Source of the DNA: Candidatus Hopanoidivorans cymbastelae
GTDB lineage: Bacteria; Actinomycetota; Acidimicrobiia; Acidimicrobiales; Hopanoidiivorantaceae
Direction: 5' to 3'
Length of the DNA stretch: 64,000 nt
NCBI GenBank assembly: GCA_028283145.1
Contig: JAPYNY010000066.1
Span: forward strand, 2,171-66,170
Below the pieces are notes generated by a model. The model saw nothing but the letters and a program-made list of their open reading frames with translations. It was not told where the DNA came from and did no database searches. The first letter of the stretch is position 1. Every line of letters begins with the position of its first letter. This document shows, piece after piece, positions 13,778 through 64,000 of the stretch. The translations under genes and the position numbers were made by a program.

Positions 13778-14638
13778 TTAGTCTTGTGCAAGCAACTCGT
13801 TAAGTTCGCAGGCAGATCTTTGAATATCATAAATACGTATTTGTTCTGCAGAATGAGTACTAAATTCTTCACGTACCGAATTGCAAATTTTTTCAGCTCT
13901 ATTTGAGCATTGCTGAATACTATATACTTCACAAATGTGACTTAATTCTAACCATAAAATTTCTATATCCGATTGATTCTCCGATTCAAGAACAATAAAT
14001 TTACTATCTGATGATATTACATTTTTGTTATCTTTTGCAGCTTCATCAATTATAAAAAAATTCATTATCTCAGCTAATTCTCGAAGTTCAAAAAATGTTT
14101 TACTTTTAATTTTTTCTGAATTGAAGTCAAAAAAGCCAAATAACCTATATACATCACGTTCAATACTTATAAAATCCAAACTGTAGTGTTCATGTATTAT
14201 ATATCTCAATTCACCAACCTCTGCTATATGAGCAGCTTTGCAAATAAACTCAACGGTAGCACGCCTTGCTGATGGATCCACTGGATGATTATGTACAACA
14301 TGACGGCAAAAACTAAGAGCAAAATCAGCACATTTTGACTGTCGACTTAATATTCTAGAAGAAACCCAACGGTTCCTATTATAGTGAGTCTCTTTACATG
14401 CTTCAATAATTGTCTCTATATAATTGATATCTTCGTCATTTAGAGTATCAATGGAAGGTTGTTCATCATTATTGCCTAAGCTTATTAAAGCAAAAAATCC
14501 CACAACAAAGCTTACGAAAAAACAAACGATGGATATAGAAATTACTACAGGGCGAAACAATTGCCTGCTTCCTAATTTTTCTTGACTAAGCCAATCCTGC
14601 TCAATCCCATATAGAGGCATTTTACTGTTTTGCTTCAT
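13778..14638 (-). CDS. AT-rich island protein A: N-in single-pass membrane protein with two Cys-rich extracytoplasmic domains (domain A + domain B), unknown family
   Basis: A 286-codon ORF in ~25-30% GC DNA is very unlikely by chance. TM segment PVVISISIVCFFVSFVVGFFALISL. Domain A (~aa 60-190) is paralogous to ORF 15128-15718 and domain B (~aa 215-286) to ORF 14651-15124, each with 4 aligned Cys. Confidence 0.7.
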   Translation of the reverse strand: MKQNSKMPLYGIEQDWLSQEKLGSRQLFRPVVISISIVCFFVSFVVGFFALISLGNNDEQPSIDTLNDEDINYIETIIEACKETHYNRNRWVSSRILSRQSKCADFALSFCRHVVHNHPVDPSARRATVEFICKAAHIAEVGELRYIIHEHYSLDFISIERDVYRLFGFFDFNSEKIKSKTFFELRELAEIMNFFIIDEAAKDNKNVISSDSKFIVLESENQSDIEILWLELSHICEVYSIQQCSNRAEKICNSVREEFSTHSAEQIRIYDIQRSACELNELLAQD

Positions 14639-14650
14639 AAGTTTAAATTA

Positions 14651-15124
14651 TCAAGAATTACTAGAGCACGCATTTATGTGTGGGGTCATATCATAGAGCA
14701 TATTATAGAAAAGCCTGGTTTGATGGGCAATCCAAATATCATAGCAAATATCATTTTCTTTAAGCTGCTCAAGCAGTTCAACATATGGAATCCATAAAGA
14801 ACAAGTTGAATCTTTAATATTTGCAATTCTCTGCATAGTTAAATGACTGATATTTTTTGTACTACCATCCCATTGACATATCTCGCCGGTCTTATGATGA
14901 CAATTTTGCTCAGAAAAGAGCTCATAGTTTTGGCAGATTGATAATAATTGCTGCCACATAATCTCTATTTCAGTTTCTCGAATATTCCAGGCTTTGGACT
15001 CAATTATGTTATTTCCTAAAGCTCGTTCATTACCCTCTATCTGATTATCAGCCTTCTGACAACCTATCAAAATTATTGATGATAGCAAAGTGATTATACA
15101 ACAAAGAAACTTAAAGGTATCCAC
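14651..15124 (-). CDS. AT-rich island protein B: predicted lipoprotein carrying domain B only, unknown family
   Basis: Signal peptide with canonical lipobox LIGC (MDTFKFLCCIITLLSSIILIGC). EIEIMWQQLLSICQNY..C..EIC aligns with DIEILWLELSHICEVY..C..KIC of protein A. There is a 12-nt gap to the next gene. Confidence 0.65.
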   Translation of the reverse strand: MDTFKFLCCIITLLSSIILIGCQKADNQIEGNERALGNNIIESKAWNIRETEIEIMWQQLLSICQNYELFSEQNCHHKTGEICQWDGSTKNISHLTMQRIANIKDSTCSLWIPYVELLEQLKENDICYDIWIAHQTRLFYNMLYDMTPHINACSSNS

Positions 15125-15127
15125 TAT

Positions 15128-15718
15128 TCAGTCCTCTAATTGAACTGCGCTATATGCATTTACAGCAATATCATCAATGCTCTTTGTTAATTGTTTGAGT
15201 TTAGTATTTATTTCGCTCGAAATATGAGTGCTATTTACTTCCAATATACCAAATAGTACCTGAATATGATTTTCAATTGACTTACGATAGTGATCGAATT
15301 CTTTACCACGGCCACCATAATATTCTCGACCATACCGTGCAGCTAGAATATACCCTAAGTGGCTTGCCTCTATAGTATGCATAGCTTCACAAAAATAATT
15401 CTCAAGAGTCAGTTGTAGTTCATTTTTTTTAAGTAAATGGATATCCGTACTATTCATTACAGGGAGGCAAAAGCTTCGTATCAAGTAAAGACAATCTGTG
15501 CTTTCATGTAGACCTCTGCTCCAGTCTCTACGGCTAAAATTAGCTGCTTCTTCACATGCAGTGACAACACTGTCAATAGAAGCAATTTCTCTTTCGCTTA
15601 ACTCATCCAAAGAAATATCATCTCTTGCAGTCAATGAAAAAACTACTACTAGGCTAGTAGATGCCAATAGCATTATTGAAACTACCGTAATTATAAAGCG
15701 AAAAAGCTGCAAAATCAT
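15128..15718 (-). CDS. AT-rich island protein C: signal-anchored protein carrying domain A only, unknown family
   Basis: N-terminal hydrophobic anchor FIITVVSIMLLASTSLVVVF. Shared pattern with protein A: L..(E/D)I..I(D/E)..(V/I).AC.E ... R.W ... C ... SFC..V ... (F)C.A.H..E...L.YI. There is a 3-nt gap to protein B. Confidence 0.65.
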   Translation of the reverse strand: MILQLFRFIITVVSIMLLASTSLVVVFSLTARDDISLDELSEREIASIDSVVTACEEAANFSRRDWSRGLHESTDCLYLIRSFCLPVMNSTDIHLLKKNELQLTLENYFCEAMHTIEASHLGYILAARYGREYYGGRGKEFDHYRKSIENHIQVLFGILEVNSTHISSEINTKLKQLTKSIDDIAVNAYSAVQLED

Positions 15719-15736
15719 AAATTGATAATGGATTTC

Positions 15737-16159
15737 TCAAACTATGATATCCTCATTGGACACACCTAGTACTACATTTGCACCCTCTCCACCATCTATT
15801 ACATCTACTCCTGCATTGCCTCTGATAGTATCATCTCCTGGTCCCCCATAGATGATGTCATCCCCACGGCCTCCCCCAATCATATCTGCTCCCTCACCAC
15901 CGTCTATAGTATCATTATCTGCTTCGCCATGCAAAATATCGGCTCCATCTTCACCTTGCAGAACATCATTTCCTTGCCCACCATAGATCCCATCAGTGCC
16001 CACACCTCCATAAAGCATATGCACACCCCCCCCCACCACGTTTCTGCTACGCAAAGAAGACGGGCAGAGCGGCACCAGTGGCACCATGTTAGGAGAATCG
16101 CCCATCATCTCGCCCAGCGTGACCCTCTTTGGCATACTGGCAATGAGATGCGCAGGCAA
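15737..16159 (-). CDS. Mini RTX (hemolysin-type Ca2+-binding nonapeptide repeat) beta-roll protein
   Basis: Nine consecutive nonapeptides fit xGGxGxDx(I/L/V): YGGVGTDGI YGGQGNDVL QGEDGADIL HGEADNDTI DGGEGADMI GGGRGDDII YGGPGDDTI RGNAGVDVI DGGEGANVV. No signal peptide, and only ~10 aa follow the repeats. The start is uncertain (TTG 16159 or several internal ATGs). Confidence 0.6.
   Translation of the reverse strand: MPAHLIASMPKRVTLGEMMGDSPNMVPLVPLCPSSLRSRNVVGGGVHMLYGGVGTDGIYGGQGNDVLQGEDGADILHGEADNDTIDGGEGADMIGGGRGDDIIYGGPGDDTIRGNAGVDVIDGGEGANVVLGVSNEDIIV
16026..16034. repeat. Homopolymeric C9/G9 tract inside the 5' part of the RTX ORF
   Basis: The plus strand reads cacaCCCCCCCCCaccacg. On the coding strand it encodes VVGGGVH, immediately before the first RTX repeat and near the point where GC content changes. 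Confidence 0.9.
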
Positions 16160-48996: not shown

Positions 48997-49473
48997 TTGG
49001 TTGAAAGGCAAGTGGTTTTGACAAAACTTGGGTTCAATCAAGGAAGAACCAGAAAGGATCAAACCAGACAGCGGTTACTTGGCAACCGGCGACTACATTT
49101 GTTTGTATCGGGGTTGATAGCGGTCGGGGTGCTTTTCGTTGCTAGTTGCTCCGGCTCAGATGAAGAACCGATGCCAACTACCACTACTACTACCACGTCC
49201 ACTACCATTGCTGAGACAACAACCACTATCCCACCTACAACTACAGAACCACCACCTAGCACAACGACTACCACTCCACCGACAACCATCAGTGTCGCTC
49301 CGGGGATGCGGCCACCACCAATCCAACTGCCACCAACGACAACCACTACAACTACCACTGCGCCACCTCAAAGCATTACGATACCAAGCATAGACTTGCA
49401 GCCTCCTGAAGAACCATTGGATGACATTCCACCTCCCCCGCCTTTGCCTATCCCAGGCTACTCGCTGCTCTAG
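48997..49473 (+). CDS. Thr/Pro-rich predicted lipoprotein without a recognisable globular domain
   Basis: Signal peptide plus lipobox LFVASC, followed by poly-Thr/Pro. It ends one frame off from the next gene (see findings). Confidence 0.45.
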   Translation: MVERQVVLTKLGFNQGRTRKDQTRQRLLGNRRLHLFVSGLIAVGVLFVASCSGSDEEPMPTTTTTTTSTTIAETTTTIPPTTTEPPPSTTTTTPPTTISVAPGMRPPPIQLPPTTTTTTTTAPPQSITIPSIDLQPPEEPLDDIPPPPPLPIPGYSLL

Positions 49474-49475
49474 CA

Positions 49476-50378
49476 GTGCTTTGCTTGGCTGCCGCAGCCT
49501 GTGGCGGCGGTGACTCAGATAGTTCTACTGACACTGCTGCGGTTCAGGATCCCCCCGAGCAGACCGACAACGGCTCAGACGCTCAAAACCCAGATAGTCC
49601 CCCACTCAATAATGAAAACCCAACTGGTGCTGAAACTGATCCTCCGACCACCACCCAGCCCCAGCCACCAACAACCACCACCACAACAACAACAACTACC
49701 ACGACCGCGCCGCCGCCACCCACAACAACAACCACAACGACAACAACTACCACCACTACCGCTCCGATAACAACAACTACCACAAGAATTACAACCCACT
49801 CAGTACTACTGCCACCGCTGCCCACAACCACAACAACAACGACCACAGCACCACCGTCGCCGCCACCCACAACCACCACCACAACGACAACCACAACTAC
49901 TACTACCACCACCACAACCACAACTACCACCACGACCACAGCACCACCCCAAATCATTTATGATTCTGTTTTGCCAAATGTTGATGTTGTCAGAGTTTCA
50001 ACCGGCGAGACAGTCAACCTCGCATCTTTGGCGCCTGCCAGCACCCCGCTGATTATCTGGTTCTGGGCTCCTCATTGACCGACTTGCCGTCGGGAAGGCC
50101 CCGACATTGAGCAGTTCGCTCAAGAACACCAAAACATAGTCCAAGTCATCGGCCTAGGCACCCAAGACGACTATGGCTACGCCCAAAACTTCATAGAGGC
50201 AACCGGCACAAACACCCCCGACATGCTCTGGGACGAAAGTTCCAGCTCATGGATATCTTTAGGAGTCAGAGGCCAGCCTGCATGGATGCTGCTAGACCAA
50301 TACGGTCAAATCCTCATTGACAGCAGATTCGGAAGTCTGGACGAAGACTTGATTTTGGAAACCTTGGGAGATCTCTGA
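49476..50378 (+). CDS. TlpA/ResA-like thioredoxin-fold protein, candidate selenoprotein copy 1 (TGA 50076-50078 read as Sec); N-terminus defective or frameshifted
   Basis: The track ORF stops at WFWAPH-TGA. The same frame continues PTCRREGPDIEQF...GQPAWMLLDQYGQILIDS.. for 99 codons to TGA 50376-50378, completing a redoxin fold. Only 8 aa precede the lipobox Cys from the GTG start, so the signal peptide is incomplete. Confidence 0.45.
50079..50123 (+). promoter_or_regulatory. Candidate bacterial SECIS region (two hairpins after the UGA); identical copy at 51105-51149
   Basis: Hairpin 1: CCGAC-UUGCC-GUCGG directly after the UGA (50079-50093). Hairpin 2: UUGAGC-AGUUC-GCUCAA at 50107-50123, which is 29 nt after the UGA with a G in the second loop position. 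The two copies are identical, so there is no covariation support. Confidence 0.3.
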
Positions 50379-50579
50379 CGCCAGCCCGCAGCTTGCCCAG
50401 CAGCTCTTGCCACTGACATCAAACCAATAACCCAATCTAGGCAAGCATTCAGGGAAATTAGCTTTTTAAAGATTTTGCAAAGATGCATCTTTTATTCATT
50501 ATTTTGGAAAATAGGAAGTTAGGTTGATGACATTCCACCTCCCCTTACATAGGCCTAAACTAAAACAGCAATAGAGTGT

Positions 50580-51404
50580 ATGAAGCCTAATTCAAACCCA
50601 CAGACCAGTCCCAAAACTAGTGCGCCAAAACGGCCCAGACAACTGCCAAGACCAGTTGCCTGGAAGTTGCTCGCTGCACTGGCAGTGCTTTGCTTGGCTG
50701 CCGTAGCTTGCGGCGGCGATTCCGGTAATTCCGCAAGTAATGTTTCAGTTCAAAATCCCCCCAGCCAGACTGGCGATGACACAGACACGGATGACGACAC
50801 TCAGTCGCCGACCAACGAATCGCCCACTCCAACCAATAGCGCCTCGCAAAATCCCGGCAGCACCGACCAAAACCCAGACAGTCATTCACCCAGCCCAGCA
50901 AATCCAACTGACCCTGAAACCACCCCTCCAACTACGGCTGCTGGACAAACCGGGCAGCCAACACCAACTACCGCCCAAATCACTTATGATTCTGTTTTAC
51001 CAGATGTTAATGTTCTGAGAGTTTCAACCGGCGAGACAGTCAACCTCGCGTCCCTGGCGCCTGCCAGCACCCCGCTGATTATCTGGTTCTGGGCTCCCCA
51101 TTGACCGACTTGCCGTCGGGAAGGCCCCGACATTGAGCAGTTCGCTCAAGAACACCAAAACATAGTCCAAGTCATCGGCCTAGGCACCCAAGACAGCTAT
51201 GGCTTCGCCCAAAACTTCGTAGAGGCAACCGGTACAAACACCCCCGACATGCTCTGGGATGAAGGCTCCAGTTCTTGGAGGGCTTTGGGAGTCAGAGGCC
51301 AGCCTGCATGGATGCTGCTAGACCAATACGGTCAAATCCTCATTGACGGCAGATTCGGAAGTCTGGACGAAGACTTGGTCTTGAAAACCTTAGGAGCCTT
51401 TTAG
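50580..51404 (+). CDS. TlpA/ResA-like thiol:disulfide oxidoreductase lipoprotein, candidate selenoprotein copy 2 (TGA 51102-51104 read as Sec)
   Basis: Complete signal peptide (KLLAALAVLCLAAVAC), Pro/Thr/Ser linker, then LIIWFWAPH-TGA-PTCRREGP. The frame stays open for 99 codons to TAG 51402-51404. The TGA sits at the position of the first Cys of the FWAxWCxxC redoxin motif. Confidence 0.6.
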
Positions 51405-51420: not shown

Positions 51421-52527
51421 CTAGCCCAAAGGCACAAAAGGCGGCTTCACAACTTCAGCGGGCAACTGCCTGTCAGACACCATCACCACAGACCCAAGGT
51501 CTACCCCAGCTTGCAACAGTGCCAAGGCAATGCCTCGCTCCAAAATCGGAGAATAGCCCCCACTGGTAATTCTGCCAACCTCTTCTTCTTCAAACCAGAC
51601 TGCCTGCCCATCCCGCAACGGGCGGCGACCTTGCGCTACCAACCCCAACAGATGCTGGGCCACGCCCGCCTCCTTTTGTGCTAACAGAACTTGGCTGCCC
51701 CGAAAAGCATTTTTTTTCCAGCCCACAACCCAGCCTAAACGTGCATTCAACGGGGTAATCCCTGGACCTAAATCATGCCCGTGGAGCGCAAGGCCAGCTT
51801 CCAGTCGCAACAGGTCTCTCGCACCTAGTCCAGCCGGCTCAAATCCCAAAGACAGCACTTGCTCCCAAAATTCTTCCGCCACCACAGCTGGGACTTCACA
51901 CTCAACTCCATCTTCACCTGTATAGCCAGTACCAGCCACAAAGCACCGAACGCCTGAAAACTCAAATGTCTCAACCGCAAACCTGCCAACATCGGCTGCT
52001 CTTTCAGACAAGCTAGCCAAGTGTTGTCTGGCTCGGGGGCCCTGCAGAGCTATCAGAGCTCTGTTCTGTGTGACATTTTCCACCTGAACTTGCCAAGCGC
52101 CAGCCCCTGCTACACCTGCCTGTGCAGCTTCAGCGGAACTTTTGCGCAGAACCTCAGCTACAGTTTCGGTGTTGGATGCATTGGGCAAGACTCTGAAGCT
52201 GCCATCGCCCACCCACCAAACGATAATGTCGTCCATCACCCAAGCATCAGTTGGGTCTAGCAGATGGGTATATTGCGCTTTGCCTGGCGAAATGCGACTC
52301 AAGTCGTTGCTGAAACACCACTGGAGTGCATCAAATACCCCCTCCCCTGAAACCTCCAAAGTCCCCAGGTGGCTGACATCAAAAGCTGCGGCGTCTTGGC
52401 GACAAGCTTGGTGCTCTGCTAGTGTGCCAGAGTTATAGCTGAGCGGAAGCTCCCAGCCGGCAAAATCCGCTAACTTGGCACCACCAGCCAAGTGCCGTTC
52501 ATGCAGCGGGGAGTGCTTGAGTGCCAC
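51421..52527 (-). CDS. gcvT: Glycine cleavage system aminomethyltransferase T
   Basis: N-terminus SPLHERHLAGGAKLADFAGWELPLSY and overall GcvT length (368 aa). Confidence 0.9.
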   Translation of the reverse strand: MALKHSPLHERHLAGGAKLADFAGWELPLSYNSGTLAEHQACRQDAAAFDVSHLGTLEVSGEGVFDALQWCFSNDLSRISPGKAQYTHLLDPTDAWVMDDIIVWWVGDGSFRVLPNASNTETVAEVLRKSSAEAAQAGVAGAGAWQVQVENVTQNRALIALQGPRARQHLASLSERAADVGRFAVETFEFSGVRCFVAGTGYTGEDGVECEVPAVVAEEFWEQVLSLGFEPAGLGARDLLRLEAGLALHGHDLGPGITPLNARLGWVVGWKKNAFRGSQVLLAQKEAGVAQHLLGLVAQGRRPLRDGQAVWFEEEEVGRITSGGYSPILERGIALALLQAGVDLGSVVMVSDRQLPAEVVKPPFVPLG

Positions 52528-52529
52528 TA

Positions 52530-53132
52530 TCAGCCTTGGGCCACTTGCTGTTGTCGCTCCGCCGACTGCTTTGGCTCCGACTGGTCTGGCTCGCTGGCTC
52601 GGCTGGCGGCTTCGGCTGAGAATATCTCCACAATTTTGCCGTCCAACTCCTGAAGAATAGTGGGAACGCCAACAACATTAAGCACGCCTTGACCCTGCTT
52701 CACCAAGTCCAGTATCTCCTGGTCATCCCGAGCATACCGCACCTGCTGGTCATCAATAATCAAATTAGCTGTCTGGATGTTGTCCCCCAGCCGCTCAATG
52801 TAAGAAAAAATCTTGACCACTGCATCAAAGTCAACGCCACCGTCAAGCAGTCTTTTGGCCACTTTTAACCGGAGCAAATCCTGATACGAATACAACCTTC
52901 TGCTGCCGCTACCCTTGGCTTTTCTGGCTGACGGCTTGATGAAATTCTTTTTGTCCCAGTGGTCTAGCTGGCGGTAGGTTATGCCTATTATTTTGATCAC
53001 CTGCATGCTGGTGTAGCCAGTGCCTTCAGATATTGAACTGACTTGATTGTCAGTTGCCTCAGATGAGACTGGAAGTTCAAAACCAGTCAGCCGTTCTTGG
53101 ACACCTTGATGATAGTTGTTTGCTAGAGACAT
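52530..53132 (-). CDS. MerR family transcriptional regulator
   Basis: HTH YTSMQVIKIIGITYRQLDHWDKK. I moved the start to ATG 53132. Confidence 0.75.
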   Translation of the reverse strand: MSLANNYHQGVQERLTGFELPVSSEATDNQVSSISEGTGYTSMQVIKIIGITYRQLDHWDKKNFIKPSARKAKGSGSRRLYSYQDLLRLKVAKRLLDGGVDFDAVVKIFSYIERLGDNIQTANLIIDDQQVRYARDDQEILDLVKQGQGVLNVVGVPTILQELDGKIVEIFSAEAASRASEPDQSEPKQSAERQQQVAQG

Positions 53133-53390
53133 CTGCTTTTTCCCTTTCTCTAGAAGACAGATTGAAACCAACCGTGGATGCTGGCGACAAGCATCCAAGT
53201 TACATCTATGTAGGTTAGCACTATCCAAGTTAGGTATGCAAGAGAAAATTTCCCAGAAATCTTGCCCGCTGGAAAATTGTTAAGAGGAGAATTGTAAGAC
53301 TTAGTGCTGCTCTACAGGAGGTGCTGCCCCGCAGCAGGCAGACGGCAGGGTTTGATCCCTAAAGCCCTAAGCCCTCAGAAGCCTTAAGCC

Positions 53391-53933
53391 CTATGACGAC
53401 TCGAAATCATCAGCCGATACGTTGGCCAGGAAATTCTTGAACTCTTCTATCACTTCTTCAGGTGGCTGGTCGGCTTCTTCCATCTCTTCATCCCCGCCTT
53501 CCAAGTTGTCATCGTCCTCTGAATCAAATTGCGGAATGAAGCCGGCTTCGTCTAAAACTTTGTCTATAGCAAAAATCGGCACATCAAATCTGACTGCCAA
53601 GGCAATTGCGTCAGACGGGCGCGAAGAAATCCTGACCGCCTTTTCTTGAGCTTGAAATACAAGATCGGCAAAGAAAGTTTTGTCCTCTAAGTCAACAATT
53701 TCCACCTTCACAAGCTCAAGGTCGGTCTCAGACAGAATGTTTCGGATCAGGTCGTGAGTCATCGGACGGGACGGCTCAACACCCTCTTGAGCCAGCGCAA
53801 TTGACAGGGCTTCAGGCTTGCCAATAAAAATGGGCAGAATTCGCTCTTCGTCCTCAAGCTCCCTGAGCAACAAGACAGGGATGCCACCCATAGCGACATG
53901 TTCGCGGAGTCCTATAAGTTCCATTTCCTTCAT
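53391..53933 (-). CDS. Bifunctional nuclease family protein (DUF151)
   Basis: PVLLLRELEDEERILPIFIGKPEALSIALA..RPMTHDL is the DUF151 signature. It has an acidic C-terminal tail. Confidence 0.8.
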   Translation of the reverse strand: MKEMELIGLREHVAMGGIPVLLLRELEDEERILPIFIGKPEALSIALAQEGVEPSRPMTHDLIRNILSETDLELVKVEIVDLEDKTFFADLVFQAQEKAVRISSRPSDAIALAVRFDVPIFAIDKVLDEAGFIPQFDSEDDDNLEGGDEEMEEADQPPEEVIEEFKNFLANVSADDFESS

Positions 53934-53962
53934 AATCGGTCCTCTGTTTCAATTATAGCACT

Positions 53963-54892
53963 TCAGTTAGGCTCGTTCAGCAGGCGCTTAAGCAAAATCT
54001 GTTGAAGTTCGCCGCCCAGCTCAACTATACGAGTTAGCTTTTGCAGCCCCTCTTGGCGCGTTTGGGGGTTTTTGCGGGCCAGAATCGGCCGGGCTAACTG
54101 CTGGGCTAAATCAGCCTCACGCTCCGCTGCCAGCGCATAAATGCGCAAATGCCTTGGCTCCAGACCAAGAGGCAGCATCTCCTTGGCTAACTGAGCCACA
54201 TCCAAGTCATATCGGTTGTATCCCCGCCTTCTGGAAGCCCTGTTGAACAGCTTGAATTCCTCTAACTGTCGCAACTGAGAGGTGCTCAAGCCGCTTTGTT
54301 GCATAAAGTTTTCCAAACTCAACATCTCTTCGGCCTGCCCAGACTTCTGGTCTGCTTGCCCACCTCCCTTTTCAGCCTGCCTGCCCCTCTTGCCTGCTTG
54401 CCTGCCCCCCTGGAGCAATGTTGTGTCTTCAATTCGCGCTCTTGTGTCCGACCGGGTGCGTCTGAAGGCAGTTGAATCTCTTGCGGCCACAGTTTTTTCA
54501 GATGTGGCTTTCGTTAAAACTTCTCCTGATGCAGCAGATGTCGCCAAAGCCGAGGCGGTCTTGCCGCCCGATGCCCTCGATGCAGAGCCGCTGCCGCTTG
54601 CACTCCTTGGCTTGGCTGCAATGACAACTGATGGTTGTTCTCCCTTCCACTCCCCTGATTCCAACTGTTCCTGAATCACCTTCAAGGGCAGAAACTTTTG
54701 CTGCTGCTTCAAGACCCAATGCAGCTGGTCTATGTCTATTTGCCTAAATCTTCGATAGCCGGATTGGCTGCGATTGAGATTTAAAATGCCGATTCTGTCT
54801 AGGTATCTGACTTTGGAAACCGTGACGTCTGGAAACTCACGCTGCAAACTCTCCACAACCTGACTTATCAGGTAATACTTCTCCTCAACCAC
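53963..54892 (-). CDS. MerR family transcriptional regulator (two MerR-like modules separated by a low-complexity linker)
   Basis: N-terminal YLISQVVESLQREFPDVTVSKVRYLDRIGIL and a second HTH-like segment near aa 195-240. Confidence 0.7.
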   Translation of the reverse strand: MVEEKYYLISQVVESLQREFPDVTVSKVRYLDRIGILNLNRSQSGYRRFRQIDIDQLHWVLKQQQKFLPLKVIQEQLESGEWKGEQPSVVIAAKPRSASGSGSASRASGGKTASALATSAASGEVLTKATSEKTVAARDSTAFRRTRSDTRARIEDTTLLQGGRQAGKRGRQAEKGGGQADQKSGQAEEMLSLENFMQQSGLSTSQLRQLEEFKLFNRASRRRGYNRYDLDVAQLAKEMLPLGLEPRHLRIYALAAEREADLAQQLARPILARKNPQTRQEGLQKLTRIVELGGELQQILLKRLLNEPN

Positions 54893-55032
54893 GAAAGGCT
54901 AACCAACTACCCAGCCAGGCCTCTTGGCCCCGCCATAAATCCACTTTGTTTTGTGGCCAATTTGCCCGCAAGCCCGCTTGCCCCCTGTCGCCAAATTTAC
55001 CGCAAGCCTGCCTGCCCCTGTCATCAATACCA

Positions 55033-55536
55033 TCAATTCAGTGGCATTTGCGTTGAGGCTGCTGATTGCTCAGGTGTTTGATATTCCAGCTTGAACCGCC
55101 CGACTTGAACGACATCGCCATTTTGCAGCTGGGCTGAATCTACTCGCTGCCGATTGACGTAAGTGCCGTTCAAAGATCCCACATCGCGCACTTCAAACCC
55201 GCTTTCGCTGATCATGACTTCAGCATGTCGGCGTGAAACTGTCAAGTCGCTCAAGAAAATATCACTTTCAGGATGGCGGCCAACGGTGGTGACAGCGTCC
55301 TTCAAGGTGAATACTACTCCCGCCTTGGCCCCTTCTTGGACAACTAGCCGCGCCGCCGGTGAAGGTTCGGCTGCCTCCGCGCCTATAGAGGTGTGGACTT
55401 GAGTCGGCTCTAGGGTCATGGGCACACCTGAATCTGCCAAATCGACACCGCAGGAAGCACAATAGGAGGATGCAGGAGAACTGATGTGGTCGCAGCGAGA
55501 GCAGCGCAGACTGCCGTCGCCTTGATCGTTACTCAT
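55033..55536 (-). CDS. FHA-domain protein (GarA/OdhI genomic position) with N-terminal zinc-ribbon
   Basis: CSRCDHISSPASSYCASCG, then the FHA core TTVGRHPESDIFLSDLTVSRRHAEV..GSLNGTYVN. Confidence 0.8.
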   Translation of the reverse strand: MSNDQGDGSLRCSRCDHISSPASSYCASCGVDLADSGVPMTLEPTQVHTSIGAEAAEPSPAARLVVQEGAKAGVVFTLKDAVTTVGRHPESDIFLSDLTVSRRHAEVMISESGFEVRDVGSLNGTYVNRQRVDSAQLQNGDVVQVGRFKLEYQTPEQSAASTQMPLN

Positions 55537-55590
55537 GGGGTTGCGCGGTTCACTGAAGTGGTAAGTCCTGTCGGCTGCCCTAAAATTCCG

Positions 55591-56004
55591 CTAGAGTCCC
55601 CCGAGGAATGCCCTGTATTCCTCAGCCGACAGCAAATTGTCCAGACCGCTTTGGTCGCTGAGCCGGATCTTGCATATCCAACCTTGTCCGTATGGGTCGC
55701 TGTTCATCAATTCTGGCGTTTCATCCAGCGTTGTGTTGATTTCCACTACTGTGCCTGAGACAGGGGTGAAAATGTCCGACACCGACTTGGTGGATTCCAC
55801 TTCACCCAGCGATTCAGTGGCCGCAACGGCTGCCTCTCGGGCTGGCAACTCTATAAAGACTATGTCGCCAAGAGCGTCCTGCGCATAGTCTGTAATGCCG
55901 ATTTCCACTGTTGCATCTCCCAGTGTGCGCACCCACTCATGATCCTTGGAGTATTTCAGGTCGTCCGGGACTTCAGTAGGCACAACTGACGTAGGTTCAG
56001 ACAT
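55591..56004 (-). CDS. gcvH: Glycine cleavage system H protein
   Basis: Lipoyl-lysine context GEVESTKSVSDIFTPVSG; 137 aa. Confidence 0.9.
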   Translation of the reverse strand: MSEPTSVVPTEVPDDLKYSKDHEWVRTLGDATVEIGITDYAQDALGDIVFIELPAREAAVAATESLGEVESTKSVSDIFTPVSGTVVEINTTLDETPELMNSDPYGQGWICKIRLSDQSGLDNLLSAEEYRAFLGGL

Positions 56005-56061
56005 GGATTTTACTATAGCACAATAGACAGACAGCCAGAAAGCTGATTTGGCGAGCGGCCG

Positions 56062-56745
56062 CTAATCTCTGGAGCGAATAGCTGCTTTAGCAAGCGGCAC
56101 ATAACCCAACATGGCGACATATGACACTGCCACCCCGACAATCCCGAAGACCCAGGCAACAGCCGACCAAGCTTGCTCCCCCGCCACGTCTGCGTTGCTC
56201 ATCAAATACAACGGGAAGGCAAACATCAAGATGAATGTTCCGGTTTTGCCTAGCCAGGTTACAGCAATTCTGCTGGCTCCCAAAGCGGCCAGGGTCAAGG
56301 TGGCTGCTGAAACACCCGCTTCGCGTGCCAGCGTCAACACGCAGATTACCAGCGGAGCCGATTGGTCAATCATCAGCGAGACAATGCCCACAAAAAACAA
56401 CAGCCTGTCTGCCACAGGGTCGATGACCTGCCCGATTTCTGAGTGCTGATTCAGTCGGCGGGCTGCCCAGCCATCCACCCAGTCAGTAGCCCCCAGAGCG
56501 CCTAGCAGAATGGCCGCAGCTGCTCTGTTTTCAACTCCAAACAACAACCAGCAAAAGACGGGTAAGCAAAGCACCCGTGCCAAAGTGATGAGGTTGGGCA
56601 CTGTCAGCACCTTTTTGGATGCCACTTGTGAGTCGGGTGGCAAAGGCTGGGGCTGGGCGGGCTGACCATGTGAGTCTGGCAAAGGCTGGGGCTGCGTGCT
56701 TGCCAGAGACTGCTGTTCAGGGAACTCAGAATTCATGTATTTCAA
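56062..56745 (-). CDS. pgsA: CDP-alcohol phosphatidyltransferase (PgsA-like)
   Basis: DWVDGWAARRLNQHSEIGQVIDPVADR matches D(x)2DG(x)2AR(x)8G(x)3D(x)3D. Confidence 0.8.
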   Translation of the reverse strand: MKYMNSEFPEQQSLASTQPQPLPDSHGQPAQPQPLPPDSQVASKKVLTVPNLITLARVLCLPVFCWLLFGVENRAAAAILLGALGATDWVDGWAARRLNQHSEIGQVIDPVADRLLFFVGIVSLMIDQSAPLVICVLTLAREAGVSAATLTLAALGASRIAVTWLGKTGTFILMFAFPLYLMSNADVAGEQAWSAVAWVFGIVGVAVSYVAMLGYVPLAKAAIRSRD

Positions 56746-56836
56746 AATTTAGCTTTGTGCCTTGCAACAATTATTGCAAGCAGGTTTGACATAAAAATAG
56801 AATTTCAATATTCTCACTTCCAAAAAGGGGCAGCAT

Positions 56837-61756: not shown

Positions 61757-64000
61757 ATGACTGCTGCGGGCAATGTAGCCGAGCCCAACTACAACCAAGT
61801 CTTGGCAGAGCAACTCAGTCGCCGGCTGCCACGCTGGACGGTCTCATCGCAAGCCACAGGCCTGCTTCAGAACTCCCAGCAGCAGCCCGACGTTTACGTG
61901 CAGCTGCCTAGCGGCTTGCCGGTCATATTGGAGTGCAAATACAACTCGCCCATCAGCAACGTGGCAGGAGTGGAAAAAGCTGCTCAGGGGCGTTTGGGTC
62001 AGGTTGCGCAAACGACCGGCCAGCAGGTAGAGCAGTCTGTAGCTGTGCTGTATCCGGAGCGCTTGAAGTCTGAAGCTGGCTCATTGGGGCAAGCTCTGGA
62101 GTCAGCGCAACTCAGCTATGCCGCTTTTTTGGGAACTCAGTCGGATTTTGTGAGGTTTCCAGAGTTGGGCTGGTTGGAAGGAAATTTGGATGACTTAGCC
62201 GATTTCATTGAGAATGTGGCTGTTTCTGAGCAAAAAATTCAAAGAGCCTTGGAACATTTTGCCAATTCGGTCAATGCAGCCGCCAATCGACTGACAAGCA
62301 TTCAGCCCTCGCCTGAAGCAACGTTGCGAAAACTTGGAAGGGTTCTGCATCAAGAACCTGGAGAACAAACCACTCGGATGGCGGTGGCTATCTTGTTGAA
62401 TGCTATGGTTTTCCACTCAACTGTGGCTGCCAACCACGCTGAGGTTGGCTCAATCAGCCAGCTTGCCGCCAAAGCCAGGCAAAAGGGCAGGTCTGTCTCC
62501 CAAAACGATGTCTTGGAAACCTGGGACTATATTTTAACCGACATTGACTATTGGCCGATTTTCGCCATCGCCAGAGATGTGCTTTGTTCAATTGACGATG
62601 AAACAGCTGCTGCCGCCATGCTGCAGTCTTTAGCTGAATCAGCTGAGCAACTGGCGCAACTCACAGCACAGACTGTCCAGGATTTGGCGGGACAGATTTT
62701 CGGAAGGCTGATCAGCGACAGGAAATTTCTAGCCACCTTCTACACTCTGCCCGCTTCGGCTGCTTTTTTGGCCGAACTGGCCATCAGCCGGCTGGATGTG
62801 GATTGGGATGCCGCCGATGCGGTCAGGTCTTTGAAAATTGCAGACTTTGCCTGTGGCACAGGTGCACTGCTTTCGGCTGCCTACCGACAAGTTGCCCAAC
62901 GGGCCAGAAGAAGAGGCATTGACGAAGTGTGGCTGCACAGAAAAATGATGGAAGAGATGCTCATCGGCACCGACATCATGCCTGCCGCGGTGCATATTAC
63001 AACGTCAATGCTTTCCTCGGTGCATCCAGAGATTGAATACACCAGCACGCGCACTCATGTGATGCCGTATGGCGCCCAGCCCGATGGGAGCATCAAGATC
63101 GGTTCGCTGCATCTCCTCAAGGCAGATGAGATGGACACTTTGTGGGGTGACGGCACTCGCGCGGTAACAGGTGAAGGGGAAGACACGACGGCGCATCTGT
63201 CGGTAGCACATGGCGAGGTGGATTTGGTGATAATGAATCCTCCATTCACCCGTTCAACCAAACACGATGCCGAGGCTGCTGGCGTTCCAGTGCCGTCTTT
63301 TGCCGGTTTTGGAACCAGCGAAGAAGAACAAAAGGAAATGGCAGCCATACTGAAGGAGCTCTATAGGAATGGAGCTGTCCGAAAGGCAGGGCATGGCAAC
63401 GCTGGGCTGGCCAGCAATTTCATCGACTTGGCTATTGCCAAAGCCAAGCCTGGAGGCGTCATTGCATTGGTTCTGCCAGCAACTTTTGCATCTGGCAATT
63501 CTTGGCGCAATGCGCGTGAACTGATAGCCAAAAAATGTGCTGATGTCTGTGTGATCAGTATCGCTGCTGATGGCACGGCTAAGCAGTCTTTTTCTGCCGA
63601 CACAGCTTTGGGCGAAGTTTTGGTCATAGCCACGCGCCGTGACGACAGCGAAACAGGTGACTCGCATTCAACTGAAAAATGGCGGTGGGTCAATCTTAGG
63701 AGCCGCCCGCAATCCCCAGCAGCAGCCACAGAAACAGCCAAGAGCATAAACGCAGCCACCGAAGGCGAGTTTTTGGTGGGCACGAGCAAAATAGGACTGG
63801 CCATTGAATCTCCGTTCGGCAACAGCTTGGAACAAATTGGAAGCTTTGACTTGGCTAGGTTGGCTTTACAGATTGAGCAGGAAAAGCATCTGAGGCTGGC
63901 TCTCCACCCTTCGGCGAAACAGGCTATGGTTGAGCTTTGCCCGCTGGGCAAAATCGGCGACAGTGGAACGTATCATCTGGATATCATCGGCAAATACACC
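61757..64000 (+). CDS. Type IIG/IIL-like restriction-modification enzyme (N-terminal PD-(D/E)XK nuclease + gamma-class N6-adenine DNA methyltransferase), 3' end outside the window
   Basis: Absent from the ORF track because it has no stop in the window. I translated it by hand from ATG 61757 (ggagga RBS at 61749-61754) with no in-frame stop through 64000 (748 codons). It carries PD45...E59-C-K61 (PDVYVQLPSGLPVILECKY), methyltransferase motif I DFACGTGALL (62843-62872) and motif IV NPPF (63236-63247). Confidence 0.75.
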   Translation, partial: MTAAGNVAEPNYNQVLAEQLSRRLPRWTVSSQATGLLQNSQQQPDVYVQLPSGLPVILECKYNSPISNVAGVEKAAQGRLGQVAQTTGQQVEQSVAVLYPERLKSEAGSLGQALESAQLSYAAFLGTQSDFVRFPELGWLEGNLDDLADFIENVAVSEQKIQRALEHFANSVNAAANRLTSIQPSPEATLRKLGRVLHQEPGEQTTRMAVAILLNAMVFHSTVAANHAEVGSISQLAAKARQKGRSVSQNDVLETWDYILTDIDYWPIFAIARDVLCSIDDETAAAAMLQSLAESAEQLAQLTAQTVQDLAGQIFGRLISDRKFLATFYTLPASAAFLAELAISRLDVDWDAADAVRSLKIADFACGTGALLSAAYRQVAQRARRRGIDEVWLHRKMMEEMLIGTDIMPAAVHITTSMLSSVHPEIEYTSTRTHVMPYGAQPDGSIKIGSLHLLKADEMDTLWGDGTRAVTGEGEDTTAHLSVAHGEVDLVIMNPPFTRSTKHDAEAAGVPVPSFAGFGTSEEEQKEMAAILKELYRNGAVRKAGHGNAGLASNFIDLAIAKAKPGGVIALVLPATFASGNSWRNARELIAKKCADVCVISIAADGTAKQSFSADTALGEVLVIATRRDDSETGDSHSTEKWRWVNLRSRPQSPAAATETAKSINAATEGEFLVGTSKIGLAIESPFGNSLEQIGSFDLARLALQIEQEKHLRLALHPSAKQAMVELCPLGKIGDSGTYHLDIIGKYT

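Follow-up and report, generated by a model that had tools for sequence, protein, structure and literature searches.

Tandem TlpA/DsbE-like redoxin genes of Candidatus Hopanoidivorans cymbastelae carry an in-frame UGA that is probably decoded as selenocysteine

The stretch of DNA analyzed here (hereafter, the window) comprises 64,000 nucleotides of contig JAPYNY010000066.1 (positions 2,171 to 66,170, forward strand; assembly GCA_028283145.1) from Candidatus Hopanoidivorans cymbastelae, a member of the class Acidimicrobiia, and includes two paralogous genes that are arranged head to tail on the plus strand (49476-50378, copy 1, and 50580-51404, copy 2), both of which carry an internal, in-frame TGA. 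A first-pass annotation, made from the sequence alone, had proposed that both genes are read through as U-x-x-C selenoproteins, i.e., with selenocysteine (Sec, U) at the first position of a CxxC redox motif. This proposal is supported by the conservation of the TGA and of the frame downstream of it, as well as by a covarying RNA hairpin that follows the TGA. The genes and their main parts are the following.

49476-50378, plus strand: copy 1, a paralog with the same domain and UGA; first possible start GTG 49476, stop TGA 50376-50378
50076-50078, plus strand: putative Sec codon (UGA) of copy 1, in the same context as the UGA of copy 2
50580-51404, plus strand: copy 2, a complete candidate selenoprotein gene running from ATG 50580 to the stop TAG 51402-51404 and translated through the TGA
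50580-50711, plus strand: predicted signal peptide of copy 2, as read from sequence, with a positively charged n-region, the hydrophobic segment LLAALAVLCLAAVA and the lipobox Cys44
51102-51104, plus strand: putative Sec codon (UGA) of copy 2, at the first position of U-P-T-C and opposite the first Cys of the CPTC motif of DsbF

Copy 2 displays the complete gene organization, that is, a lipoprotein signal peptide with the lipobox LAAVA-C44 (AVAC; the Cys44 codon is TGC 50709-50711), a Pro-, Thr-, and Asp-rich linker (about 90 residues), and the TlpA/DsbE-like redoxin domain with U-P-T-C, which spans about 140 residues, and the frame of the gene is broken only once, in the context LIIWFWAPH-TGA-PTCRREGPDIEQFAQEH. 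As the first-pass annotation had described, the open reading frames (ORFs) 49476-50078 and 50580-51104 both end in LIIWFWAPH-TGA, and exactly 99 in-frame sense codons follow the internal TGA in each copy, up to TGA 50376-50378 and TAG 51402-51404, respectively. It had also reported no start codon for about 45 codons after the TGA; the next in-frame ATG, GTG, or TTG is in fact 48 codons past the TGA, and the following listed ORFs begin at 50223 and 51249. The linkers of the two paralogs are unrelated (49650-49940 vs. 50712-50975): the linker of copy 1 spans about 130 residues of nearly pure Thr with some Pro and Ala, encoded by runs of ACC, ACA, ACT, and ACG codons that give long spurious poly-Val ORFs on the opposite strand, and the linker of copy 2 is acidic and rich in Pro, Ser, and Thr.

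Profile and structure comparisons, made with U written as C in the joined protein, indicate that both copies encode TlpA/DsbE/DsbF-type thioredoxin-fold oxidoreductases; the family is a lipoprotein-anchored, extracytoplasmic one. The domain matches Pfam Redoxin (PF08534) with 42-43 bits against a cut-off of 26.6 (E 9e-11) and AhpC-TSA (PF00578) with 39-40 bits against a cut-off of 26. The best match among solved structures is Mycobacterium tuberculosis DsbF (Rv1677, PDB 3IOS; E 7e-16), followed by DsbE/Mpt53 of the same organism (Rv2878c, PDB 1LU4; E 1.4e-10). In these alignments, the TGA column coincides with the first Cys of WFWAPWCPTC in DsbF and with the first Cys of the DsbE/Mpt53 motif, so that FWAPH-U-PTC stands against FWAPW-C-PTC with U replacing the first Cys, and the Pro loop GQPAW of the query is opposite QQPAY of DsbF. 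Hence, the earlier placement of the TGA at the nucleophilic Cys of a redoxin/TlpA fold holds, both by the Pfam match and by the DsbF alignment. The genes share with DsbF and DsbE/Mpt53 the TlpA-like thioredoxin fold, the WFWAP-x-[C/U]-P-T-C motif, the QPA cis-Pro loop, and the actinobacterial exported setting; they differ in that the two M. tuberculosis proteins have Cys at the nucleophilic position, preceded by Trp rather than His, and identity is about 35-40% over about 100 residues.

CcmG/DsbE, ResA, and TlpA are extracytoplasmic reductases fed by DsbD/CcdA, and the window genes resemble E. coli CcmG/DsbE (W-C-P-T-C), B. subtilis ResA, and TlpA in the membrane-tethered TlpA-like fold, with the x-x dipeptide PT as in CcmG. 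The query, however, scores far below the cut-offs of the corresponding family models, with 33.1 vs. 123 bits for TIGR00385, 28.5 vs. 170 for NF002854, and 25.7 vs. 359 for NF011941; that is, DsbE, ResA, and thioredoxin are the top NCBIfam matches, all sub-threshold. Among the selenoprotein-specific NCBIfam models, only the SelL-related NF040769 (SelL_rel_redox) appears (E 0.002, 17.8 bits vs. a cut-off of 120), and neither NF047660 (HUIPC-motif selenoprotein) nor NF040730 (SaoT) matches at E <= 0.01.

The two copies are recent paralogs whose sequences do not differ between -3 and +92 nt of the TGA. They differ at 17 codons after the TGA, six of them purely synonymous and with no indel or stop, in agreement with the first-pass count, and at nine codons before it; the corresponding dN/dS values are 0.31 downstream and 0.20 upstream of the UGA, and the domain of copy 1 is under purifying selection. 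Because of the recent duplication and the identity from -3 to +92 nt, the two TGA copies do not constitute independent evidence, and independent support for read-through must come from other lineages rather than from the second copy. The same consideration limits the earlier argument that a 99-codon stop-free run has a chance of (61/64)^99 and occurs twice: the run is indeed present in both copies, but it counts once.

Matches by tblastn span query residues 6-142 across the stop, at 42-54% identity, and a genome scan provided orthologs in two Acidimicrobiales metagenome-assembled chromosomes (L005 and L006) that are 51% and 47% identical to the query and keep the TGA. Both read ...LLWFWAPH*PTCRREAPG..., and in both a lipoprotein signal is followed by a Pro-rich linker and the tail is 98 codons long; they are positional orthologs since they adjoin the same downstream genes as in the window (MerR, BFN-nuclease, Rv1828-like MerR, and GcvH). 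For metagenomes, we scanned with a three-sequence alignment and with the patterns [LI][LI]WFWAPH and EQFAQEH, which omit the Sec/Cys column, and obtained 80 loci of 40-54% identity to the query. The Sec/Cys column in these loci is occupied by TGA in 83 (77 + 6) of 88 copies and by TGC in the remaining five, with no other codon; since EQFAQEH lies in an element specific to the Sec-form and the loci were ranked by similarity to that form, the 83:5 ratio describes the nearest relatives and not the whole superfamily. All tails after the UGA are 95-106 codons long, i.e., the downstream frame is kept as protein across lineages, and a lipobox-type signal peptide is present in 67 of the 67 relatives with a complete 5' end. 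Further, a search of representative proteins with the 99-residue tail gave 209 matches; of the best 150, about 49 are Cys-forms of full length reading WAPHCPxC, WAPYCPxC, or WAPWCPTC. Accordingly, homologs do align a Cys at the TGA column, as the first-pass annotation had asked to be checked: DsbF and DsbE, the full-length Cys-forms, and the five TGC copies all do so.

Tandem pairs of diverged paralogs, both with TGA, occur in six of the metagenome contigs (L018, L021, L022, L052, L072, and L082), the two sites being 0.8-1.6 kb apart. One paralog type of these pairs has the motif [IV][EA]QLA..NP.LN and a compensated variant (GCGC/GCGC) of the hairpin described next.

In the window, the 100 nt around the UGA fold into two adjacent hairpins, H1 and H2, with the following positions.

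50089-50105, plus strand: H1 of copy 1, same sequence as H1 of copy 2
50107-50123, plus strand: H2 of copy 1, candidate selenocysteine insertion sequence (SECIS), same sequence as H2 of copy 2
51115-51131, plus strand: H1 of copy 2, GUCGGG-AAGGC-CCCGAC, starting 10 nt after the UGA; from the fold
51133-51149, plus strand: H2 of copy 2, UUGAGC-AGUUC-GCUCAA, starting 29 nt after the UGA and encoding (I)EQFAQ; from the fold and RNAalifold

Hairpin statistics come from 75 distinct sequences aligned without gaps (A4), and the RNAalifold consensus on A4 retains H2 only, with the consensus YGAGC-AGUUY-GCUCR, which encodes EQFA[R/Q]. In H2, 97.1% of the alignment cells are paired, vs. 20-48% when the partner columns are slid, and the covariation score was reached in none of 500 shuffles. 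At the pair 42-56, 47 sequences have C-G, 22 have U-A, and four have U-G, with one break, and the pair 44-54 is A-U in 71, C-G in three, and G-C in one, the switches combining a Glu-to-Ala/Gly replacement with a synonymous change of the Ala codon. Thus, the RNA fold that the first-pass annotation had suggested looking for after the UGA exists as a conserved hairpin with compensatory changes. Codon usage points in the same direction: the Ala codon of the 3' arm is GCU in 73 of 77 sequences, as opposed to 11% of the Ala codons elsewhere in the same genes, the Glu codon is GAG in 73 of 73, the Gln codon is CAG in 76 of 76, and the third position of the Val/Ile/Leu codon just before varies in step with the second position of the Gln/Arg codon that follows, a pattern indicative of selection on the RNA rather than on the protein. 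The motif occurs 92 times in 532 kb, and 90 of these occurrences are at the UGA sites studied here. Cys-forms have variable residues at the position of EQFA[R/Q] (e.g., VETFS, LLAFA, VEAFA) and the RNA motif is missing from them; hence, EQFA[R/Q] reflects an RNA-level constraint specific to the UGA genes. Within the loop, AGUUY, G-U-U is invariant. The Phe codon of the loop (A4 column 51) is UUU in 39 of 72 sequences, vs. 14% of the Phe codons elsewhere in these genes, which suggests that U is preferred at the last loop position.

H1 is less regular. A hairpin is usually possible in the relatives, with 69% of the alignment cells paired and a register that shifts with the amino-acid sequence, and partial covariation is seen at the pair 24-38, within the CRREAP subgroup. 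We had considered H1 as the SECIS given its E. coli-like spacing, but demoted it based on the non-conserved register and the 69% pairing. H2 is, in our view, the best candidate for the SECIS and SelB-binding element, and H1 could serve as a spacer or helper. In the SECIS of E. coli fdhF, the SelB-binding hairpin lies just after the UGA and its loop is closer than 34 nt, and SelB-bound SECIS loops carry G-U. H2 resembles this element in being a hairpin within the coding sequence 3' of the UGA, with a compensated stem and a small apical loop containing G and the invariant G-U; it differs in that the loop is farther from the UGA, the stem has 5-6 bp, a second, variable hairpin lies in between, and no Rfam match is available. 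Binding of H2 by SelB is a prediction.

Collectively, we estimate a probability of roughly 0.87 that the UGA of both copies is decoded as selenocysteine at the first position of the CxxC motif (APH-U-P-T-C), and a U-x-x-C selenoprotein is the only reading in keeping with the comparative data: the TGA at the Cys column of the orthologs (83 TGA to five TGC codons in the metagenome loci), the downstream frame kept as protein, and the conserved hairpin. According to the corresponding model, SelB with Sec-tRNA(Sec) would recode the UGA co-translationally, recruited by the hairpin within the coding sequence (H2, 29 nt after the UGA and preceded by the less conserved H1). The full-length product of copy 2 would then be exported unfolded through the Sec translocon and lipidated at Cys44, and its long, probably disordered linker would tether the enzyme on the outer face of the membrane. 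There, the selenolate would attack substrate disulfides (or sulfenates) and the resolving Cys would close the selenenylsulfide. An adjacent CcdA/DsbD-type protein, as found in some relatives, would keep the enzyme reduced from the cytoplasm, i.e., as a reductase.

In seven loci (L007, L009, L015, L034, L036, L054, and L079), one of which has a Cys-form, the redoxin gene has a DsbD_TM/CcdA-like gene as its immediate neighbor on the same strand. ResB/CcsA cytochrome c biogenesis genes were absent near the redoxin gene in the related loci, and no CcdA gene is beside the window genes, two further differences from CcmG and ResA. A role in cytochrome c maturation was considered and is not supported, given the CcdA neighbors in seven loci but no ResB/CcsA; for the same reason, we lean slightly toward a CcdA-fed reductase of general use instead of a cytochrome c maturation factor. 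A 595-aa pyridine-nucleotide-disulfide oxidoreductase is encoded about 2 kb upstream of the redoxin gene in 16 loci.

Several observations weigh against selenocysteine decoding or against parts of the model. The reductase direction rests on CcdA genes in seven of about 80 loci, none of them in the window, and M. tuberculosis DsbE and DsbF are reportedly oxidases in vitro, a property that need not transfer. Copy 1 is without a usable signal peptide, which is at odds with an extracytoplasmic location of its product. The H2 loop begins 34 nt after the UGA, beyond the spacing of E. coli fdhF. No component of the Sec machinery was encountered: ARAGORN found no tRNA at all in the window and no tRNA-Sec in 90 loci, Pfam identified no SelA, SelB, or SelD in a set of ten large ORFs located at 17.9-31.6 kb (a few of them about as long as selA, selB, or selD; the set consists of UvrC, RapZ, NadA, Obg, ProB, and other housekeeping proteins), tblastn with approximate E. 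coli SelA, SelB, and SelD sequences gave nothing in the 90 loci, and the 7.6 kb beyond the window contain none either; the sequence covered amounts to about 0.6 Mb of scattered flanks and not a genome, and hence these searches do not represent a negative result for the organism. Finally, no Rfam family matches the hairpins at the gathering threshold or at E 10, which is to be expected because bacterial SECIS elements are poorly represented there (preprint 10.64898/2026.04.03.716425).

The same observations (no machinery in the window or loci, no Rfam SECIS match, and a conserved hairpin farther from the UGA than in the E. coli paradigm) would also fit an alternative without selenium, in which a suppressor or near-cognate tRNA inserts Trp, Cys, or Gly at the UGA, with the hairpins stimulating read-through. 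Nonetheless, the only other codon at this column is the Cys codon TGC, and the pairing of Cys and UGA at a redox site is the signature of Sec; the invariant G-U of the loop is also what SelB-bound SECIS loops carry. Genome-wide reassignment of UGA can be rejected based on stop-codon usage since TGA terminates 28 of the 63 window ORFs that reach 150 aa, more than any other stop codon does, and also ends copy 1. In addition, all 84 complete genomes of Actinomarina, from a related order of the same class, are reported to encode selC, selA, selD, and a divergent selB, with about five predicted selenoproteins each (preprint 10.64898/2026.04.03.716425), and SelA and SelB clusters of orthologous groups (COGs) are reported in most sponge-symbiont bins of various phyla (PMC5649159), both of which provide indirect support for Sec decoding. 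We therefore view selenium-free decoding as improbable, albeit the best surviving of the alternatives, and infer Sec rather than another amino acid. A scan of the window for other TGA-split ORFs with a redox motif found none.

It could also be argued that translation truly terminates at the UGA, resulting in a short lipoprotein (signal, linker, and 42 residues), and that the 99-codon tail is a separate gene or is conserved for some other reason. Gene callers, as well as NCBI and JGI, treat the parts as separate ORFs, and the 95-100-aa C-terminal pieces are entered as if complete, either as 'TlpA family protein disulfide reductase' or as 'peroxiredoxin' (e.g., proteins P0185-P0204, from Acidimicrobiia bacterium, Ilumatobacter sp., and Ca. 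Poriferisocius sp.). Likewise, most of the other matches among the best 150 of the tail search are fragments of 70-100 aa that start at or soon after x-x-C (e.g., MCRREAPDVEQFAR...), and no full-length U-containing entry was present among the best 120 matches of a search with the family alignment. However, the UGA interrupts the beta1-alpha1 active-site motif within a single thioredoxin fold, the full-length Cys-forms show one protein, no start codon is available for 48 codons after the UGA in the window, and the fragments called in the relatives 'start' at one or the other x of U-x-x-C, depending on which is Met or Val. These fragments most likely represent mis-called Sec-forms, and we give true termination a slim chance, somewhat lower than that of selenium-free decoding.

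The possibility that the two genes are pseudogenes, i.e., that a nonsense mutation in a Cys-type redoxin was copied by duplication and the frame has not yet decayed, is worth considering given that the copies are identical from -3 to +92 nt, so a single mutation could explain both, and that copy 1 has also lost its start codon. Yet the same TGA is found in orthologs of 42-54% identity (two genomes and the 80 metagenome loci), the tails are intact everywhere, and dN/dS is 0.31 after the TGA; that the TGA and the frame behind it are kept across lineages refutes decay, leaving it barely any probability. Lastly, an error of sequencing or assembly hiding a true TGC or TGT, which has in its favor only that in-frame stops are often errors, is negligible, since the TGA is present in the JGI contig matching the window, in contigs from other JGI samples that represent strain variants (the domain differs by 4-5 substitutions), in Logan assemblies of two Sequence Read Archive (SRA) runs, and in 80 unrelated metagenome contigs.

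With selenocysteine as the preferred reading for both copies, it is important to note that only copy 2 has a complete lipoprotein signal. The first-pass annotation had described a tandem lipoprotein pair, which stands for copy 2 and not for copy 1. Compared with copy 2, a deletion has removed the ATG and charged n-region from copy 1, and the gene begins at GTG 49476 within a signal-peptide remnant, giving MLCLAAAAC (nine residues); no start codon is available in the frame upstream of this GTG, which a stop closes off, and the upstream sequence is the same in an independent contig (L093). Export and expression of copy 1 are therefore doubtful, its own start codon and n-region having been lost. 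One further gene directly precedes it.

48997-49473, plus strand: upstream ORF with a lipoprotein-like signal (LFVASC) and a Thr/Pro-rich region, ending 2 nt before the GTG of copy 1 and in another frame

This ORF has no match in Pfam or NCBIfam. A 19-nt segment, GATGACATTCCACCTCCCC, lies upstream of both copies, at 49420-49438 (coding, in the 3' end of ORF 48997-49473) and at 50526-50544 (intergenic), and marks the junction of the duplication; the Logan assemblies also bear out the junction between copy 1 and copy 2. A single extra C in the run 49434-49438 would join the upstream ORF to copy 1. A homopolymer error splitting the two was nevertheless rejected, because an independent assembly carries the same five Cs, and the arrangement is thus real.

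Thioredoxin-fold UxxC proteins are among the classic metagenomic selenoproteins. The Sargasso Sea study (Zhang, Fomenko, and Gladyshev 2005, PMC1088965) described a UxxC family of four sequences, termed 'thiol-disulfide isomerase-like protein', beside DsbA-like and DsbG-like families; a 2026 review (PMC13188914) lists the former as cd02966 TlpA-like, UxxC, together with a 'Redoxin family protein, PF08534, UxxC'; and the GOS study reported a Trx-like COG0526 family that normally carries UxxC. The window genes share with the Sargasso family the TlpA-like/redoxin domain, UxxC, a single Sec, occurrence in marine metagenomes, and a stem-loop with G in a small apical loop 3' of the UGA; the review names MGB1650493.1 and HEU0032618.1 as representatives, and the comparison was made by descriptors, all of which fit. 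UxxC TlpA-like selenoproteins have thus been cataloged since 2005 and no new class is opened here. Nor is the arrangement 'unusual', as the first-pass annotation had assumed: across the family in the Acidimicrobiia, one finds the lipoprotein anchor and the Sec codon, and tandem pairs as well, and UxxC TlpA-like kinds have been listed since the Sargasso study (PMC1088965; PMC13188914). On the other hand, the Sargasso and review descriptions make no mention of a lipoprotein anchor, Acidimicrobiia, tandem pairs, or the H2 hairpin, and none of the sources examined describes a lipoprotein clade of the Acidimicrobiia as such, its occurrence in tandem pairs, or H2 with its imprint EQFA[R/Q].

It is possible, although we hold this only tentatively and consider it on balance doubtful, that these genes represent a distinct, unannotated clade of lipoprotein-anchored DsbE/DsbF-like proteins of marine and sediment Acidimicrobiia, mostly in the Sec form, with an atypical two-hairpin SECIS whose SelB-binding loop AGUUY, about 34 nt from the UGA, imposes EQFA[R/Q] on the protein. 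If so, a lineage-specific SelB/SECIS geometry would be implied and selenium would be needed for cell-envelope thiol-disulfide chemistry in abundant aquatic actinobacteria. More generally, the selenoprotein reading would mean that a widespread group of aquatic actinobacteria has selenium on the outer face of its membrane, and H2 would be a clean natural case of an RNA element dictating a protein motif (EQFA[R/Q]). On the practical side, public records split these genes, and the family together with the conserved hairpin offers a simple repair rule for them as well as a marker by which Acidimicrobiia bins with the Sec trait may be recognized.

Downstream of the redoxin genes (51421-56800), the window encodes MerR, a BFN nuclease, the Rv1828-like MerR, an FHA protein (GarA-like), GcvH, and a CDP-alcohol phosphatidyltransferase, in actinobacterial synteny. 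Compared to the two MAG chromosomes, where the corresponding genes lie at 10.4-14.4 kb of L005 and L006, only the window has gcvT inserted, and the FHA gene was encountered in the window lineage alone; the upstream neighbors in those two chromosomes are an ECF-type sigma factor and a membrane protein of 606-630 aa. Elsewhere in the window, a low-GC island at 14001-16000 (GC 0.355, the surroundings being at about 0.53-0.56) coincides with minus-strand ORFs at 13778-15718 and may have been horizontally acquired. From about 61757 to 64000 and past the end of the window (L089, 1-9876), there is a restriction/defense-like cluster of large genes, which encode a PLD-domain SNF2/helicase protein of 1155 aa and, with 1008 and >1173 aa, two methyltransferase/restriction proteins resembling Eco57I.

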